Source: Ignavibacteriota bacterium
GTDB lineage: Bacteria; Bacteroidota; Ignavibacteria; UBA10030; UBA6906
DNA length: 64,000 nucleotides
Direction of reading: 5' to 3'
Assembly: GCA_016707525.1 (NCBI GenBank)
Contig: JADJHP010000003.1
Span: 76,677-140,676, forward strand
Below, in pieces: positions 13,080 to 48,237 of the stretch; within the stretch, counting starts at the first letter, position 1, and each line of letters opens with the position of its first letter. The notes under the pieces were generated by a model. The model searched no databases. It saw only the letters and a list, made by a program, of their open reading frames with translations, and was not told the origin of the DNA. The position numbers and the translations under genes are program-made.

Positions 13080-14654
13080 TTACATGGAAAGGCTAAAACT
13101 GCCGGGTCCCCCGACCACGGTCAGCATCGGCTCGAACATCGCATTCGCTTCCTGGCACTCCACGACCACCTGCGCAAACCGCGTGAAGCGGCCGGCAGGG
13201 ACCTCGAAGGCGGCTTTCAGGATAGGCTTCCAGTCCTCGGATGACCCGCTGCCCAGGCCCACCATCGACTCGACCGTATGGGTGTCCGATGCACCGGCAA
13301 GCCGCTGCAGGATCGATTCCGCAAGTTTCTTTTCGCGATTGAGAAGGCGTTCCAGCGTCTTGATATCCGTCTTCCTGGTGGCCGCGGAGACGCGCGCCCG
13401 TTCGGAGTCGTGCCGCCCTCCCCGCGACGGCGATGTCTCTGCGGGAAGCATCCGCTGGACATGGGCATCGAGGACGAAGGCATGCACGCGCCACGTGCTG
13501 AGCGTGGAAAGCCCGACCAGGATCTCGAACAATGCATCGCGCCGGAGATCGACGCGGCGCAGAAGATCGTTCCGGCCGAACACCACGGTGCCCGGTTCAG
13601 CGGGAAGGACGAGTGACCGCAGCCGCAGCGTATTCACCAGGGATTCGTGAACGTTGCGGTGTCTGATGGATTCCTGCTTGCCCAGAAGCAACATGCCTGT
13701 CCTGCTCACACTTGCTTCCTGGTTCTTCAGCGTGCTGAGGAAGAACCTCATGCCGGCATGATCGAAGGCAAAGATCTCGCTGCCGCGCTCCACACCGTCG
13801 ACGCCGACGCCGAAGGCGTGCGGGGATGGCGTATCCTGCAGAGAGATCAACCCGGCCGCAAGAACGAAGGCGGTCTGCTCATCGAATGCAATGCGCACAC
13901 GCACTGACGGCGTATGCAGCGGCGATGGGGGATCGGGGACGTATGGCTCAGCCGGTGCGGGCGCAGGCGCAGGCTGATGCGGCGGAACGAACGGCGCCGG
14001 TGCTTCCACCGGAATTCGGGGCGCAGCAACCTGAGAAACCGCGGGCCGCTTCGGTTCGGGAACAGATGATGGTGGCACCGGTGGGGTGACCGGTACAGGC
14101 CGGGAGAGTTCAACCGGCGGATGCGGAACAGCTACAGGACGTGACGCCTCAACCGGTGGTTTCGGAACAGCGAGGGCGGAGGCCTCAACCGGCGGTTTCG
14201 GAAAGCGACGAGGACGTGACGCCTCAACCGGTGGTTTCGGAACGGCCACAGGCCGTACCTGTGGCGCCGCTGGATCGGAAGCCTCGATGCGCCGGGGTGT
14301 TGGAGCCACGACCGACGTGGGAGCGTCGGGGGTGACCTCCGGAACAGGCCGCGGAGCCGGCGGTGCAGAAGCAGGGACAGGAATTTCGGGAACCGGAAAA
14401 GGCTTCCGCAGCGGCTCCTCTTTCAGCGGGGGCGGAGGAGGTGTAGAAAACAGCGCGGGCTTCTGGTGGACCGGCGGAGGAGGCGGAGCGGCGCCTTCCG
14501 CGGCAAGTCGTTCCACTTCGCCGACCATCCTGCGGACGACCGCATCAGCTTCCTCTGCCGGCACCCCACCGAGGGATGTGCGGAGGGCAGAGCTCCTGGC
14601 AAGTGCTCCCAGGAGTTCACCGAGGAGTGCGGCACCCATGATGTCTTTCATCAC
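13080..14654 (-). CDS. proline-rich tandem-repeat protein with a C-terminal globular domain (possibly GvpL/GvpF-like)
   Basis: 524 aa; central ~200-aa Pro-rich region with 13-aa repeats (VPKPPVEASRP...); C-terminal 250 aa shows a GvpF-like pattern (IRHRNVHESLVNTL...LPAEPGTVVFG). Divergent from the ECF sigma gene. Confidence 0.5.
   Translation of the reverse strand: MMKDIMGAALLGELLGALARSSALRTSLGGVPAEEADAVVRRMVGEVERLAAEGAAPPPPPVHQKPALFSTPPPPPLKEEPLRKPFPVPEIPVPASAPPAPRPVPEVTPDAPTSVVAPTPRRIEASDPAAPQVRPVAVPKPPVEASRPRRFPKPPVEASALAVPKPPVEASRPVAVPHPPVELSRPVPVTPPVPPSSVPEPKRPAVSQVAAPRIPVEAPAPFVPPHQPAPAPAPAEPYVPDPPSPLHTPSVRVRIAFDEQTAFVLAAGLISLQDTPSPHAFGVGVDGVERGSEIFAFDHAGMRFFLSTLKNQEASVSRTGMLLLGKQESIRHRNVHESLVNTLRLRSLVLPAEPGTVVFGRNDLLRRVDLRRDALFEILVGLSTLSTWRVHAFVLDAHVQRMLPAETSPSRGGRHDSERARVSAATRKTDIKTLERLLNREKKLAESILQRLAGASDTHTVESMVGLGSGSSEDWKPILKAAFEVPAGRFTRFAQVVVECQEANAMFEPMLTVVGGPGSFSLSM
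14108..14259. repeat. imperfect tandem DNA repeat, ~4 copies of a 36-39-bp unit (GCCTCAACCGG[C/T]GGTTTCGGAAC...)
   Basis: Read directly; encodes the PKPPVEASRPV peptide repeats of the Pro-rich protein. Confidence 0.75.
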
Positions 14655-14807
14655 GCCCCTTCGTTCAGACCGGTGTATTTCATAGAACGCCTCTCAGACG
14701 AAGATACATATTGCGGGCGAAAACATCAAACTTGCGAGTGGTTTCAGGTTTTGGTACGTTAGTGAAACATTCCCTGACTCTTCTTCCTCCGAAAGAGCAT
14801 CTTACAA

Positions 14808-15431
14808 GTGACACAGCGATCTCCCCGGCTGTTGCCGGACGACGAGCTTATCGGGCTGGCCCGCGGGGGCGACGCGCGGGCATTCACGGAGCTCGTGAAG
14901 CGCTACGAGGACACGGTGTATCGGTTCTCGTACAAGATCTGCCGGGACAGCGAGGCGGCATCGGAGACCCTTCAGGACACGTTCATCAATGTGTACCGCA
15001 AATTGAACAGTTTTGACGGGAAATCCAAGTTCTCGACCTGGCTGTACACGATCGTGACCAATAATTGTCTGATGAAGCGCCGGAAGCGGAAGAGCGATCT
15101 GATGGAAGAGTCCCTCGAGGCCTACGATCATCCCCCCGGCCAGTCCGGCGGCACGCCACGGCAGAAACCGGTACACACACCGGAGACGCCGGCGGATGTC
15201 GTGATCGGGCGTGAACTCAAGACCTTGCTCGAAGATGCCATGGCAAAGCTTCCTGAAGAATATCGTGTGGTCTTCACCATGCGGGATGTCGAGGGGCGAT
15301 CCACGGAGGAAACCGCCGGGGTGCTCGGACTGTCGGTGGAAGCCACCAAGTCGCGCCTTCGCCGTGCACGGGCGTTCCTCCGCGACCAACTGCAGCCACA
15401 CCTGACGGCACATCCGGAGATCCTGACATGA
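14808..15431 (+). CDS. RNA polymerase ECF-type sigma factor (sigma-70 family)
   Basis: 207 aa; sigma region 2 (DTFINVYRKLNSFDGKSKFSTWLYTIVTN) and region 4 HTH; GTG start. Confidence 0.85.
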   Translation: MTQRSPRLLPDDELIGLARGGDARAFTELVKRYEDTVYRFSYKICRDSEAASETLQDTFINVYRKLNSFDGKSKFSTWLYTIVTNNCLMKRRKRKSDLMEESLEAYDHPPGQSGGTPRQKPVHTPETPADVVIGRELKTLLEDAMAKLPEEYRVVFTMRDVEGRSTEETAGVLGLSVEATKSRLRRARAFLRDQLQPHLTAHPEILT

Positions 15432-15703
15432 AGTGCGGGGACGTGTATCTCCATATATGTGACCACCTCGACGAGGACATCAATTCCGAGCGTTGCCGCC
15501 AGATCAAGCAGCACCTTGCAGAATGCCCGAATTGCAGCGAATACCTGAGCTCGCTCAAGCAAACGATCACGTTGTACCGTGCCCTCCCCCCTCCGCGCAT
15601 TCCGGCAGGAGCGCATCGCGACCTGTTCAAGACGATCTCATCGCTTACGGCAGAAGCGGCACCGGGGGCATCAAAACGCGGACGGAAAGCGAAGCGGGCC
15701 TGA
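15428..15703 (+). CDS. zinc-finger (ZAS, HX3CX2C) anti-sigma factor, soluble RsrA-like
   Basis: 91 aa, no TM segment; upstream Cys (C11) plus HLAECPNC = H-x3-C-x2-C; start overlaps the sigma stop (ATGA). Confidence 0.7.
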   Translation: MKCGDVYLHICDHLDEDINSERCRQIKQHLAECPNCSEYLSSLKQTITLYRALPPPRIPAGAHRDLFKTISSLTAEAAPGASKRGRKAKRA

Positions 15704-15778
15704 CCCTTCCGGCCCCCACCGTGCATCCTATGGACACAATTCGGGGGTCCCGTCCACACAGTACAGGAGTTTGATCGC

Positions 15779-15991
15779 ATGACAAAGAACGTAGGTCCGG
15801 CTGACCGGATCGTCCGCACCCTGCTCGCCATCGTCCTTGGCATTTTGATCTTCACCGGCGAAGTGACCGGCACGCTTGCTATCGTCCTCGGTGTCCTGGC
15901 TGTCGTTCTGCTCGCGACAAGCGCCGTGAGTTTCTGCCCGCTGTACACCATCGGGAAGATCTCCACCGCAAAGGACGGGGCGAAGAAGTAA
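15779..15991 (+). CDS. DUF2892 (YgaP-like) small membrane protein
   Basis: 70 aa; GPADRIVRTLLAIVLG ... FCPLY motif characteristic of DUF2892. Confidence 0.7.
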   Translation: MTKNVGPADRIVRTLLAIVLGILIFTGEVTGTLAIVLGVLAVVLLATSAVSFCPLYTIGKISTAKDGAKK

Positions 15992-16224
15992 TGGGTCCGT
16001 CGTCCGGGAGTCCGATCTCCGGTTCGATGCAGGTCGAGGAGTTGTTGGAACGATATCCGATGGCAACGGGACTTCTGCTACAGCACGGGGTCCCCTGTCT
16101 CGTGTGCGGTGAACCGGTGTGGGGCACGCTCGGCGAGGTTCTGGGAAGCCATGGCAAGAAGCCGGAGGAGGCCGCCGCGATCGTGCAGGAACTCAAGAAG
16201 GAGCTGGAGGTGAAACCCCTATGA
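15991..16224 (+). CDS. DUF1858 domain protein (small CxxC redox-type protein)
   Basis: 77 aa (or 65 aa from MQVEELLERYP); ...LLQHGVPCLVCGE...LGEVLGSHGKKPEEAAAIVQEL matches the DUF1858 fold pattern; TAATG stop/start overlap with the upstream gene. Confidence 0.6.
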   Translation: MGPSSGSPISGSMQVEELLERYPMATGLLLQHGVPCLVCGEPVWGTLGEVLGSHGKKPEEAAAIVQELKKELEVKPL

Positions 16225-16403
16225 TGCGTAGCATATGGTTCAAACGCGCGGCTGCGGTGCTGCTTGGCAGTGCCGGCGGCTTCGCGTACTATTATTTCAT
16301 CGGGTGTGCGAGCGGAACATGTCCGATAACGTCCAGCCCGTACATCAGCACGGGATACGGGGCGTTGATCGGCGTGATACTCACAACAGGACGGAAGTCA
16401 TGA
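16221..16403 (+). CDS. DUF6132 family small membrane protein
   Basis: MMRSIWFKRAAAVLLGSAGGFAYYYFIGCASGTCPITSSPYISTGYGALIGVILTTGRKS; ORF-track ORF 16119..16403 trimmed to the ATG that overlaps the upstream TGA (ATGA). Confidence 0.6.
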   Translation: MMRSIWFKRAAAVLLGSAGGFAYYYFIGCASGTCPITSSPYISTGYGALIGVILTTGRKS

Positions 16404-16789
16404 CGACCATCGGGGTGGTGCTCGGGATCTTCGCCTCGCTGCTGATCATACTGCAGCTCGTGATCGTGATCAATGCGAAGAAACGGAGAGGGCGCCGTAT
16501 CCTCGGCGTGGGTGGGCCACTCGGTGAGGCGGTCAATTCGGGCGACCGCGTTCTTGCCTATTTCTACTCTCCGACCTGCTCGGAGTGCAAGACCCAGACG
16601 CCGATCATCGACATCCTTCAGCGCGAATACCCCAATGTGTACAAGGTCGACGTTGCGGAGCATTTCGAAGCCGCGCGGGCATTCGGTGTGATGGCGACGC
16701 CGACGACCGTCCTCGTTGACCAGAGCAAGATCGTCGACGTCTTCGTCGGCACCCGCAGTGAAGCGGTCCTCCGGGAAGCACTGCTGTAA
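16400..16789 (+). CDS. membrane-anchored thioredoxin-fold protein (CSEC active site)
   Basis: ORF 16235..16789 trimmed to MTTIGVV (ATG 16400, overlaps the upstream stop); N-terminal TM helix, then thioredoxin fold with FYSPTCSECK. Confidence 0.7.
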   Translation: MTTIGVVLGIFASLLIILQLVIVINAKKRRGRRILGVGGPLGEAVNSGDRVLAYFYSPTCSECKTQTPIIDILQREYPNVYKVDVAEHFEAARAFGVMATPTTVLVDQSKIVDVFVGTRSEAVLREALL

Positions 16790-16801
16790 CACTCTCCTGT
16801 C

Positions 16802-18320
16802 TCAGGTGGCGGAGCCGGACAACCGGCTCTTCCTCCATCCGAAGACGGCATACACCACGAGTCCGGCGGCAAGCCACGTACCGAAACGGATCCACGTGAT
16901 CTCCGGCAATCCCATCATCAGGTAGATGCAGCTCGCGATCCCGAGGATCGGGACCAGAGGCACCAGCGGCGTGCGGAAATGCACGTTTCCGGTGGGGGTC
17001 CTTGACGCGGAGCACGATCACACCGGCACACACGAGCATGAATGCGAACAGCGTCCCGATGTTCGTCAACTCAACGATCTCATTGATGTTCGCCACCGCG
17101 GAAACGACCGCAACCCCAACACCGGTCCAGAACGTCGTGATGTGCGGCGTCTTGTATTTCGGGTGCACGCGGGAGAAGTACGCCGGCAATAATCCATCGC
17201 GCGACATCGCAAAGAAAATGCGGGGCTGGCCGTACTGGAAGACCAGAAGGACCGCGGTCATGGAGACCACGGCGCCTACGGCAACGATCCCCGCGGAGAC
17301 ATCGGAGTGGACATACGCGAATGCCGCCGCCAGCGGGTCCGCGACGCCCAGGTGCTGCCACGGCACCATCCCGGTGAGCACGAGCGCCACCACGATATAG
17401 ATCACCGTACAGACCGCCAGTGATCCGATGATGCCGATCGGCAGATCGCGTTCCGGGTGTTTGCATTCCTCCGCGGCGGTCGAGATCGCATCGAACCCGA
17501 TGTAGGCGAAGAAGATGAGCGAGGCGCCGACCCACACGCCGGAGAACCCATTGGGCATGAACGGCGACCAGTTCTCGGGTTTCACGAATTGTGCGCCGGC
17601 ATAGACGAAGAACATCAGGATGACGAGCTTCACGATCACCATGACGTTGTTGACCCGTACGGACTCCTTGACGCCGATGATGAGCAGCCAGGTGATGACC
17701 GCCACGATGCCAACGGCAAGGGCATTGAAGATGATGGGGATGCCGAGGAAGGTGGGGTGTGCACGCCAGGCTTCGAGCGGCAGAAGGAGCGAAGCATCCA
17801 CCTGTCCACCCGCTTTCAGGGCCGCCTCGGCCGCCTGGGCAGCGGATCGATAGTCCACCGCCAGCCAGGCCGGGATGTGCCATCCGATCCCCTCGCAGAG
17901 CTGATGGAAGTAGGCGGCCCAGGCGATGGCGACCGCGACATTCCCTACCGCATATTCGATGATCAGGTCCCACCCGATGATCCACGCAACAAGCTCACCC
18001 AGCGTCGCATAGGAATACGTGTACGCGCTTCCCGAGATCGGCACGAGCGACGCGAATTCCGCGTAGCAGAGCCCGCAGAACGCGCACGCGACCGCCGTCA
18101 GTCCGAACGAGAGGACGATCGCCGGGCCGGCACCGGGGCGCATCGCATCACCCGCCACAGCGGTCCCGATGGTGGCGAAGATGCCTGATCCGATGATCGC
18201 GCCGATACCGAGCATGACGATGTCGAATGGCCCGAGCGCCCTCTTGAGCTGATGCTCGGGGTTCTCCGCCTCGCGCATGATCGCATCAAGGCTCTTCGTG
18301 CGGAACAATTGACGGAACAT
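16802..18320 (-). pseudogene. APC-family amino acid permease interrupted by a +1 frameshift (extra C near 16975-16980)
   Basis: ORF 16605..18320 is permease-like up to ...VLRVKDPHRKRAF, then turns into junk. The authentic C-terminus (RTPLVPLVPILGIASCIYLMMGLP...) sits in ORF 16802..16984 in the adjacent frame. Junction reads aaacgtgcatttCcgcacg. Confidence 0.75.
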
Positions 18321-47523: not shown

Positions 47524-48237
47524 ATGAACAGCGATCTGTATACCCTCATCGGCACTGCCGCATCACTCGGTTTCATCCACACCCTTGTCGGGCCGGATCA
47601 CTATGTGCCGTTCGTCGCTATGGCCCGCGCGGGCAAATGGAGCCGGCTCAAGACGTTGTACGTGACGGTACTCTCCGGCCTCGGCCATGTAGGGAGTTCC
47701 ATCCTCCTCGGAGCGGTCGGGATCGCATTGGGCAGTGCACTGTCGCATCTTGAGTGGGTCGAATCGATACGCGGTGAGGTTGCGGCATGGATGCTGACCG
47801 GCTTCGGACTGGCATACATGGTCTGGGGGATCTGGCACGGGATCCGCTCCCGCCCGCATTCCCATGCACACGCCCATGCAGATGGCGCGGTGCACGAGCA
47901 CACGCACACGCATCACTCAGCGCACGCGCATCCCCATGAACACGGCAAGCCCGCGAACCTGACGCCCTGGATCATCTTCAGCATCTTTGTCTTCGGCCCG
48001 TGCGAGCCGCTGATCCCGTTGCTCATGTATCCCGCGGCCATCCACTCGTCGCTCGGCGTGGCCCTCGTTGCGACGGTCTTCGCCCTTACAACGATCGCAA
48101 CGATGCTCGGCATGGTCTTCCTCGGATTGGCCGGCGTCGAACTGATCCCCTTCCCCCGCCTCGAACGCTACATCCACGCCATGGCAGGCGGGATCATTGC
48201 CATGTCGGGGCTGAGCGTGCTCTTTCTTGGCCTCTAA
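47524..48237 (+). CDS. nickel/cobalt efflux-type transporter, NicO/RcnA family, with His-rich cytoplasmic loop
   Basis: ORF 47497..48237 (likely start MNSDLY at 47524); H-x4-DH motif (HTLVGPDH), 6 TM, loop HSHAHAHADGAVHEHTHTHHSAHAHPHEHG. Confidence 0.65.
   Translation: MNSDLYTLIGTAASLGFIHTLVGPDHYVPFVAMARAGKWSRLKTLYVTVLSGLGHVGSSILLGAVGIALGSALSHLEWVESIRGEVAAWMLTGFGLAYMVWGIWHGIRSRPHSHAHAHADGAVHEHTHTHHSAHAHPHEHGKPANLTPWIIFSIFVFGPCEPLIPLLMYPAAIHSSLGVALVATVFALTTIATMLGMVFLGLAGVELIPFPRLERYIHAMAGGIIAMSGLSVLFLGL

Follow-up and report, generated by a model that had tools for sequence, protein, structure and literature searches.

The window analysed in this work is a 64,000-bp stretch of contig JADJHP010000003.1 (GenBank assembly GCA_016707525.1, positions 76,677 to 140,676 of the forward strand) from an Ignavibacteriota bacterium, and the region of interest is a six-gene unit in which genes coding for an extracytoplasmic function (ECF) sigma factor and a soluble zinc anti-sigma factor (ZAS) are followed by a cassette of four small genes, namely those for a DUF2892 protein, a DUF1858-like protein, a DUF6132 protein and a thioredoxin (Trx). 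Two matches of one promoter motif, P1 upstream of the sigma gene and P2 upstream of the cassette, are present in the unit and recur in related loci. With moderate confidence, the unit is interpreted as an autoregulated ECF/ZAS thiol switch driving a membrane-proximal cassette that would act in thiol and sulfane-sulfur stress. The features of the locus, including the transmembrane (TM) segments predicted, are:

14775-14805, plus strand: P1, predicted ECF-dependent autoregulatory promoter (motif match)
14808-15431, plus strand: ECF sigma factor (group 4), 207 aa, GTG start (Pfam and TIGR02937)
15428-15703, plus strand: soluble ZAS, 91 aa (zf-HC2, no TM segment)
15701-15731, plus strand: P2, predicted ECF-dependent cassette promoter (motif match)
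15779-15991, plus strand: stand-alone DUF2892/YgaP-like TM protein, 70 aa (PF11127)
15991-16224, plus strand: DUF1858-like soluble CxxC protein, 77 aa, an accessory cassette member (PF08984 at the family level)
16221-16403, plus strand: DUF6132 protein, 60 aa, predicted helical hairpin (PF19628)
16400-16789, plus strand: TM-anchored thioredoxin, 129 aa, active site CSEC (PF00085)

All six ORFs were confirmed on the plus strand where a sequence-only reading, made by a model without database searches, had placed them. The same reading had the successive genes overlapping, which in the sequence is true of four junctions: ATGA at 15428-15431 between the sigma and ZAS genes, TAATG at 15989-15993 between the DUF2892 and DUF1858-like genes, and ATGA at 16221-16224 and at 16400-16403 on either side of the DUF6132 gene. 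The ZAS and DUF2892 genes, on the other hand, are separated by a gap of 75 nt (15704-15778), with the sequence AGGAG at 15765-15769 upstream of the DUF2892 gene. As both neighbours, a GvpL/GvpF-like gene at 13080-14654 and an amino-acid permease gene ending near 16802, are located on the minus strand, the six-gene stretch is an isolated unit. No further gene of the module families was found in the window outside the unit. A scan of positions 14000-17500 against Rfam gave no match at E ≤ 1, and in the region 14500-17000 a sigma-70 promoter scan returned chance-level matches only, while a terminator scan found none between the ZAS and DUF2892 genes and none downstream of the Trx gene.

The promoter motif came to light in an alignment of sigma-gene upstream regions from close relatives, which share a conserved CTGAC...GCATC block just before the sigma start codon, and was then generalised. 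In the window this pattern is present at 14774-14801 and at 15700-15727, the latter within the ZAS-DUF2892 gap. The motif consists of two blocks, ccTGAC(C/T)CnTTTT and tGCATCnnA(T/C), with a 17-18-nt spacer from TGAC to GCATC, and the refined pattern TGAC[CTA]C-N15-16-GCATCnnA[CT] matches exactly twice in the 64 kb, at 14775-14805 (P1) and 15701-15731 (P2). P1 has the -35 element TGACTC at 14775-14780 and the -10 element GCATC at 14797-14801, followed by TTAC; it scores 32.4 bits with the position weight matrix (PWM) and aligns with the conserved blocks upstream of orthologous sigma genes. P2 has TGACCC at 15701-15706 and GCATC at 15723-15727 and scores 24.7 bits. The TGA of its -35 element is at the same time the stop codon of the ZAS gene (15701-15703), which is also the case in the related loci L001, L004, L005 and L006.

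Between the GCATC of P1 and the start codon of the sigma gene there are 6 nt, and the motif match as a whole stops 2 nt short of that codon; the mRNA would thus have no leader or almost none. In relatives, the sigma gene starts with GTG, TTG or ATG. Leaderless translation usually favours AUG, and non-AUG starts on a predicted leaderless sigma mRNA are for that reason unusual.

For the comparison with other genomes, two sets of loci were collected. The genome set includes 80 species-representative loci around DUF6132, mostly from Bacteroidota, Ignavibacteriota, Chlorobiota and Calditrichota, with counts given over 81 genome loci and ORFs annotated with profiles seeded from the window; the reverse set includes 75 metagenome contigs anchored on the ZAS by means of a seven-sequence alignment, and the two sets together make 156 loci. 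Across the genome loci the strict pattern has 35 matches, all of them on the module strand, compared to about 0.45 in Markov shuffles, and at a PWM score of at least 20 bits there are 50 matches on the plus strand versus one on the minus strand. The independent metagenome set contains 62 matches (about 0.2 in shuffles), 58 of which are on the plus strand; 28 matches precede the ECF gene and 27 the DUF2892 gene. P2-type motifs also precede the DUF2892 gene in many of the genome loci. Over the 156 loci there are about 100 matches, nearly all on the module strand. The conservation extends beyond the initial search pattern to a C at -35+5, a T-rich tract and an A at -10+5, and in more distant lineages the PWM scan revealed TGAA(C/T)CCTTTT as the first block, that is, the classic ECF "GAAC" -35 element. 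Sites were also found upstream of second sub-operons, such as Zn-ribbon-rhodanese-DUF6132-DUF302-Trx, and upstream of cassettes with no adjacent sigma gene (L007, L010, L013, L014, L022 and L072).

The search for an ECF promoter upstream of position 14808 and elsewhere, which had been suggested along with the sequence-only reading, thus succeeded: one motif precedes the sigma gene as well as the cassette. Since this motif is conserved across 156 loci, the cassette is very probably controlled by the sigma factor, as that reading had supposed. The sigma factor would read P1 for its own synthesis and P2 for that of the cassette.

Three other candidates were rejected. A third match of a looser pattern, at 47959, fails the refined motif. 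The first de novo count of motifs upstream of the sigma genes gave clade-specific signals only. The pair AAGATACATATTG...CAAACTTGCGGGT at 14700-14740, considered as an ECF promoter, is limited to the clade of the window and has no counterpart before the cassette. It is part of a conserved block (AAGATACATATTG ... CAAACTTGCGGGT ... GGTTTTGGTACGTTAG, 14700-14745) located between the GvpL/F-like and sigma genes, and the block from AAGATACATATTG to GGTTTTGGTACGTTAG may serve the divergent GvpL/F-like gene as promoter or operator.

The identification of the first two products as an ECF sigma factor and a soluble ZAS was borne out by profile searches. The sigma factor matches the Pfam families Sigma70_r2 (64.6 bits), Sigma70_r4_2 (60.6 bits) and Sigma70_ECF (30.9 bits) and belongs to the ECF superfamily according to TIGR02937 (106.4 bits against a cutoff of 42.9), but it passes the cutoff of no named NCBIfam equivalog, the best being PRK11922 with 159 against 204 bits, and SigW reaching 127 against 209. 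The nearest solved structure is that of SigW (5wuq_A, 6.8e-26). Orthologues of the sigma gene are located directly upstream of the ZAS gene in 54 of 55 ZAS-anchored loci. Residues 178 and 180, encoded at 15339-15347 and located in the region 4.2 helix, best separate the loci with a TGAC block from those with a TGAA block: the former have E178/T180 (E in 42 of 42), the latter mostly P178/V180 (P in 15 of 18). This may represent co-variation of the sigma factor with the -35 base, a reading confounded by the fact that the two groups are separate clades.

The ZAS scores 25.3 bits with zf-HC2 (cutoff 22.2), contains no hydrophobic segment and matches, with 100% identity, a protein annotated as "hypothetical protein" in an Ignavibacteriae metagenome-assembled genome (MAG). 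It has cysteines at positions 3, 11, 23, 33 and 36 and a histidine at position 29, the last three of these residues in sequence forming the motif H29-x3-C33-x2-C36; this motif, the zf-HC2 match and the adjoining ECF gene place it in the ZAS class. All six residues are invariant in 17 orthologues of the core clade, all of which are 75-91 aa long and have no TM segment. Five cysteines and one histidine exceed the four ligands needed for zinc, and their invariance is counted in favour of a thiol switch. In an ungapped BLASTP alignment with RsrA, C3, C23, H29, C33 and C36 correspond to RsrA C11, C31, H37, C41 and C44, so that C3 pairs with C11, which is both a zinc ligand and a disulfide partner in RsrA. 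Jung et al. (2011) list the proteins CHU_0600 of Cytophaga and Ctha_1264 of Chloroherpeton among four non-actinobacterial BLAST relatives of RsrA (PMC3177212). The shared spacing and these relatives are also counted in favour of a thiol switch.

A second ZAS-like paralogue is encoded just downstream of the DUF2892 gene in several loci (L046 3820-4188, L058 1742-2068, L131 1570-1818, L145 3518-3850 and L148 4582-4806), often followed by a gene of the u96 family described below. It keeps the H-x3-C-x2-C motif without the upstream cysteines and may represent a second layer of anti-sigma control.

Each of the cassette proteins keeps a cysteine motif across its homologues. The DUF2892 protein (PF11127, 68.7 bits against 25.3) has two hydrophobic segments and a single cysteine, Cys53 in the sequence FCPLY, at the cytoplasmic end of the second TM segment, which is kept in 34 homologues. 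In E. coli YgaP, the corresponding TM domain is a dimeric helix-loop-helix attached to a cytosolic rhodanese domain, and C159, to which Cys53 corresponds, lies close to the SCN- site, where TMH2 ends on its C-terminal, cytoplasmic side (PMC4730233).

The DUF1858 label given to the next protein stands at the family level, while the window protein itself falls below the cutoffs of PF08984 (19.2 against 32.2 bits) and TIGR03980 (23.5 against 44.95 bits). Its homologues match PF08984 at E < 0.01 in 21 cases out of 21 (best 5.5e-9), and the profile built from them aligns its CxxC with that of 2K53, a solved DUF1858 structure (4.6e-5). The CxxC in question is formed by C36 and C39 (CLVCGE), and the sequence CxxCGEPxWG is invariant or nearly so.

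The DUF6132 protein (PF19628, 36.4 bits against 23.2) carries the motif GCASGTCP within a nearly invariant core G..GGFAYYYFIGCxSGTCPIxSxPY, C29 and C34 being invariant in 35 sequences. The AlphaFold2 (AF2) model contains helices at residues 3-26 and 40-56 (pLDDT 76) with C29-x4-C34 in the loop connecting them, and a Foldseek search of the PDB with this model gave no match at E < 4, returning generic membrane hairpins only. The termini are basic and the loop is uncharged, the hydropathy is only moderate (KD17 maximum 1.36), and the protein is probably inserted in the membrane. The family consists of stand-alone proteins, with 1421 cluster representatives at E ≤ 1e-3, nearly all of them 57-100 aa long. 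One protein of 174 aa, P0249, has DUF6132 (residues 8-54) fused to a C-terminal rhodanese domain (81-169, 75 bits), which mirrors YgaP with its rhodanese fused to DUF2892; it is the single such case among the 150 best DUF6132 matches and is perhaps a gene-calling artefact. As YgaP and P0249 fuse each of the two families with rhodanese, both DUF2892 and DUF6132 are tied to sulfurtransferases.

The thioredoxin (PF00085, 49.3 bits against 23.5) has a non-canonical active site, C60-S-E-C63, with TCSECK in place of WCGPC, and stays below the cutoff of the canonical model TIGR01068 (51.4 against 96.8 bits) as well as those of the periplasmic oxidoreductase families ResA (17.6 against 170 bits) and DsbE (14.1 against 123). 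Its TM segment (residues 8-24) is followed by NAKKRRGRR, there being six K/R residues after the helix and none before it, and the Trx domain is accordingly predicted by charge distribution to be cytoplasmic. Orthologues form a distinct subtype with the TM helix, the basic stretch and a CxxC (CSEC, CSAC, CAAC or CGAC), and their genes are always located directly after the DUF6132 gene or after the anti-sigma gene. Given the predicted cytoplasmic location, a role as an "envelope" reductase or a periplasmic one of the ResA/TlpA type is not favoured.

The conservation of the neighbourhood across the Fibrobacteres-Chlorobi-Bacteroidetes (FCB) group, proposed earlier as a check, was found, and the small genes recur in many lineages with 4-nt overlaps, which marks them as genuine, conserved genes and bears out their translational coupling. 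With more than 150 loci in which genes of the unit are found together, the association is far beyond chance. In the genome loci, thioredoxin is found in 52 of 81, rhodanese in 35, DUF2892 in 33, the pair of ECF sigma factor and ZAS in 31, DUF302 in 29, a Zn_ribbon_8 protein with a Cys-rich tail in 24, DUF1858-like proteins in 21 and OsmC-type proteins in 18, together with CcdA in six and TauE and methyltransferases in a few. Of the ZAS-anchored loci, 45 extend far enough for the 2.5 kb downstream of the ZAS gene to be scored; 41 of them encode at least one cassette family there (DUF2892 in 27, Trx in 21, DUF6132 in 12 and DUF1858 in five), and the first gene after that of the ZAS is most often DUF2892 (24 of 45). 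The ECF and ZAS genes overlap in 82 of 102 adjacent pairs, and the DUF6132-Trx and DUF1858-DUF6132 adjacencies each have a median gap of -4, whereas the ZAS-DUF2892 junction shows no overlaps (n = 57) and a median gap of 77 nt.

The claim that the four small proteins make up one unit was not upheld. All four families occur together in only eight of the 156 loci; the exact six-gene order is found outside the window only in L006, where DUF1858 is truncated, and the closest relatives (L001, L004, L005 and L037) share the flanking genes but lack DUF1858. The cassette is thus of a mix-and-match kind rather than a fixed four-gene unit, with rhodanese, DUF302, OsmC and the Zn-ribbon protein being equally typical of it.

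The neighbouring Trx, rhodanese, DUF302, Zn-ribbon, OsmC, TauE and CcdA genes are counted in favour of a thiol- or sulfur-related function; DUF302 is otherwise known from sox clusters (PMC5037610). The context points at least as much to sulfane-sulfur and rhodanese chemistry as to plain disulfide stress, the kind of stress that the sequence-only reading had supposed.

Several further observations were made in the related loci. A family of about 96 aa, u96, with three conserved-looking cysteines and no Pfam match, is absent from the window; its gene recurs in 21 of the 81 genome loci, where it is placed between that of DUF2892 and one for DUF1858 or DUF6132. Loci with u96 include L016, L033, L097, L101, L114, L125, L127 and L022 (200-490). 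The Zn_ribbon_8 (FmdB-like) protein has a serine-rich linker and the tail CSSGSCCGGSC, and its gene is usually located just upstream of the rhodanese gene (L056 5292-5525). In Bacteroidales, namely Paludibacter and Prevotellaceae MAGs (L040, L050, L059, L076, L077 and L083), cassette genes occur without the ECF pair and code for DUF6132, a divergent YgaP-like protein, a lipoprotein-type Trx and DUF302, with a weak HMA-like CxxC protein between genes; they adjoin the gene of either an ArsR-family regulator or a LysR-type regulator accompanied by a 1-Cys peroxiredoxin. These regulators and the peroxiredoxin point to thiol, peroxide or sulfur stress.

The mechanism proposed for the thiol switch would be as follows. 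At rest, the ZAS would hold the sigma factor, with zinc bound by C3, H29, C33 and C36. Cytoplasmic thiol-reactive stress, be it disulfide stress, reactive sulfur species or electrophiles, would modify the ZAS cysteines, whereupon zinc would be lost and the sigma factor freed to bring RNA polymerase to the near-identical P1, as a feedback on its own gene, and P2, which would drive the coupled DUF2892, DUF1858-like, DUF6132 and TM-thioredoxin genes. The products would act at or in the inner membrane: DUF2892 as a dimeric two-helix protein with its cysteine at the cytoplasmic face, DUF6132 as a hairpin with the C-x4-C loop, the thioredoxin tethered to the membrane with its domain directed towards the cytoplasm, and the DUF1858-like protein as a small soluble CxxC protein. 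Together they would keep membrane-associated thiols reduced or pass sulfane sulfur on, with rhodanese, DUF302 and OsmC taking part in most relatives. The redox sensitivity of the ZAS, on which the scheme depends, we infer from the conserved cysteines, and the topologies, the stress signal and the biochemical role are likewise to be read as predictions.

A number of points weigh against this scheme, most of them concerning the ZAS. With the RsrA model TIGR03988 the protein scores 31.3 bits against a cutoff of 62.5, over model positions 1-39 of 77, and a phmmer search of the PDB returned RsiW at E = 0.019 and did not find RsrA. At the positions of the RsrA redox determinants E39, E40, L45 and E46 (Jung et al. 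2011, PMC3177212), E32 and E38 match while A31 and S37 differ, that is, two of four, and these positions are variable among the orthologues. Many ZAS proteins, including ChrR, RsiW and RsuA, bind zinc without sensing thiol oxidation (PMC3177212). As to the cassette, the hydropathy of DUF6132 is under the usual TM threshold, the topology of the thioredoxin was assigned solely by the positive-inside rule, and the operon of the window is without rhodanese, DUF302 or OsmC, so that the link to sulfur is provided by the relatives. The promoter motif, finally, was derived from the same locus family and then validated on the second, independent set. The designation "SigR/RsrA-like" from the sequence-only reading therefore holds for the architecture and the Cys/His spacing, but not with respect to the model cutoff, the nearest relatives, which are SigW and RsiW, or the promoter, which is not of the SigR type; because the spacing is shared while the model, the structures and the promoter differ, the ZAS represents an RsrA-like design and not a member of the RsrA family.

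The same findings bear on a different explanation, according to which the ECF factor drives the cassette while the zinc in the ZAS is only structural and the sigma factor is freed by a different kind of input, for instance proteolysis, an envelope signal or a partner protein; the cassette would then serve routine upkeep of membrane-protein thiols or supply reducing power for cytochrome or periplasmic maturation. The nearest solved relatives, SigW and RsiW, are regulated by proteolysis, the threshold of the RsrA model is missed and two of the four redox determinants are present, and CcdA/DsbD_TM and TlpA-like thioredoxins are found in some loci, all of which would agree with it. Despite that, this explanation is considered unlikely: the ZAS has no TM or extracytoplasmic domain for regulated intramembrane proteolysis, the extra invariant C11 and C23 are hard to account for structurally, the thioredoxin of the window is predicted to be cytoplasmic, and CcdA is present in only six of the 81 loci.

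It is more doubtful still that the unit is a system for stress by thiophilic metals or metalloids (Hg, Cd, Cu, As, Te or Se), in which metals would displace the zinc or bind the ZAS cysteines, the hairpins would bind or pass on metal in the manner of MerT/MerF, and the tethered thioredoxin and the CxxC protein would be cytoplasmic metal acceptors. Such a function would fit the Cys pairs in or beside short membrane hairpins, the methyltransferases (a weak TehB match in L002), the weak HMA-like protein, the ArsR-family regulators and the Zn-ribbon protein with the CSSGSCCGGSC tail in some loci, as well as the joint presence of CcdA and Trx in several. However, the recurrent families of the 156 loci include no efflux pump, P-type ATPase, CDF, RND, MerA, ArsC or ArsB, a statement covering the clustered or HMM-scanned neighbours, with most singleton ORFs outside it. 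The HMA match is under threshold (17.5 against 24.8 bits), and rhodanese, OsmC, peroxiredoxin and TauE suggest sulfur or peroxide chemistry instead. The ArsR family also includes persulfide sensors such as YgaV, BigR and SqrR. The idea that the small ORFs are a chance juxtaposition or non-functional, for which one might cite the GC content of the window of about 60%, its many overlapping spurious ORFs in all frames and the sub-threshold DUF1858 match, is in effect refuted by the conservation data, as all six products have conserved homologues and Cys motifs, the same order and 4-nt overlaps are kept in many lineages of differing GC, and the promoter motif is conserved.

In the literature searched, no description was found of the sigma/ZAS-cassette system, its promoter or the DUF regulon, nor anything on DUF6132 or anything joining DUF2892 or DUF302 to ECF sigma factors, which agrees with the earlier remark that the combination matches no described system. 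ECF/ZAS switches as a class are well known. To our knowledge, redox-sensing ZAS anti-sigma factors have been experimentally established only in Actinobacteria. As a tentative and more far-reaching suggestion, DUF2892, DUF6132 and the tethered non-canonical thioredoxin, with DUF1858 and rhodanese being optional, might constitute an undescribed minimal thiol-disulfide/sulfane-sulfur membrane relay of FCB-group bacteria, switched on via TGACCC-N15-16-GCATC by the first RsrA-type thiol-sensing anti-sigma factor outside Actinobacteria. If so, the defined promoter would make it possible to derive the complete regulon from genome sequences.

What the comparison provides is a large FCB-group family of sigma and anti-sigma factors with the cysteine layout of RsrA, a defined target promoter and a compact regulon. 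DUF6132, the stand-alone DUF2892 and DUF1858, all of unknown function, thereby gain a regulatory context and partners such as rhodanese, thioredoxin, OsmC and DUF302. The module is widespread, and its cultured carriers may include Cytophaga hutchinsonii and Chloroherpeton thalassium, if CHU_0600 and Ctha_1264 are members of the family. Should the cassette indeed handle sulfane sulfur or membrane thiols, it would be a new element in how Bacteroidota, Ignavibacteriota and Chlorobiota with an anaerobic or microaerobic way of life withstand the sulfide and oxidants of sediments and wastewater.

Both genes flanking the unit show peculiarities of their own. The permease gene (16802-18320, minus strand) is split by a frameshift near 16977-17002: an intact orthologue is matched in frame -1 over its residues 2-449 and in frame -2 over residues 441-502. 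The frameshift adjoins a run of five C (gacccccacc) and is either a homopolymer sequencing error or the mark of a pseudogene. The minus-strand ORF 16605-18320 (571 aa), which overlaps the Trx gene, was rejected as an artefact of this frameshift. On the other side, the gene at 13080-14654 (minus strand), divergent from the sigma gene, codes for a protein of 524 aa that ends in a GvpL/GvpF domain (E = 4.8e-9) and whose long N-terminal half is rich in proline and contains repeats resembling PKPPVEASRP; this neighbour is kept in the clade of the window (L001, L004-L006, L037, L073 and L079) and not elsewhere.

Among the known systems, SigR-RsrA of Streptomyces coelicolor (ECF12) resembles the unit in having a sigma gene followed by the gene of a small soluble ZAS, in the identical Cys/His spacing C-x19-C-x5-H-x3-C-x2-C, in the autoregulatory promoter and in the presence of a thioredoxin in the regulon. 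The sigma factor of the window is, however, closer to SigW and RpoE, with 94 bits to SigW compared to 30 bits to a fragment of SigR. The SigR consensus is GGAAT-N18-GTT, whereas the motif conserved here is TGA(C/A)(C/T)C-N15-16-GCATCnnAY. The host, moreover, belongs to the FCB group and has no mycothiol, and small membrane proteins of unknown function serve as effectors.

SigW-RsiW of Bacillus subtilis gave the best solved-structure matches for both proteins (6.8e-26 for the sigma factor and 0.019 for the anti-sigma domain), and the H-x3-C-x2-C zinc motif is found in RsiW as well. RsiW is a membrane protein freed by regulated proteolysis and insensitive to thiol oxidants (PMC3177212), from which the ZAS of the window differs in being a soluble protein of 91 aa with three extra conserved cysteines.

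The YgaV-YgaP system of E. coli, consisting of an ArsR-type regulator and a membrane rhodanese, shares with the window the TM domain of YgaP in the form of DUF2892, with the same cysteine; relatives of the window carry separate rhodanese genes in the same clusters, and in some Bacteroidales loci the ECF pair is replaced by an ArsR-family regulator. In the window, by contrast, the TM domain stands alone with no rhodanese, the regulator is an ECF sigma factor with a ZAS, and DUF6132, the DUF1858-like protein and the tethered thioredoxin are added.

The relays of CcdA/DsbD with ResA/TlpA, finally, likewise combine thioredoxin folds with Cys-bearing membrane proteins. A minority of the related loci carry CcdA, and neither CcdA nor DsbD is encoded in the window, where the thioredoxin is predicted to face the cytoplasm and its membrane partners are two-helix mini-proteins.

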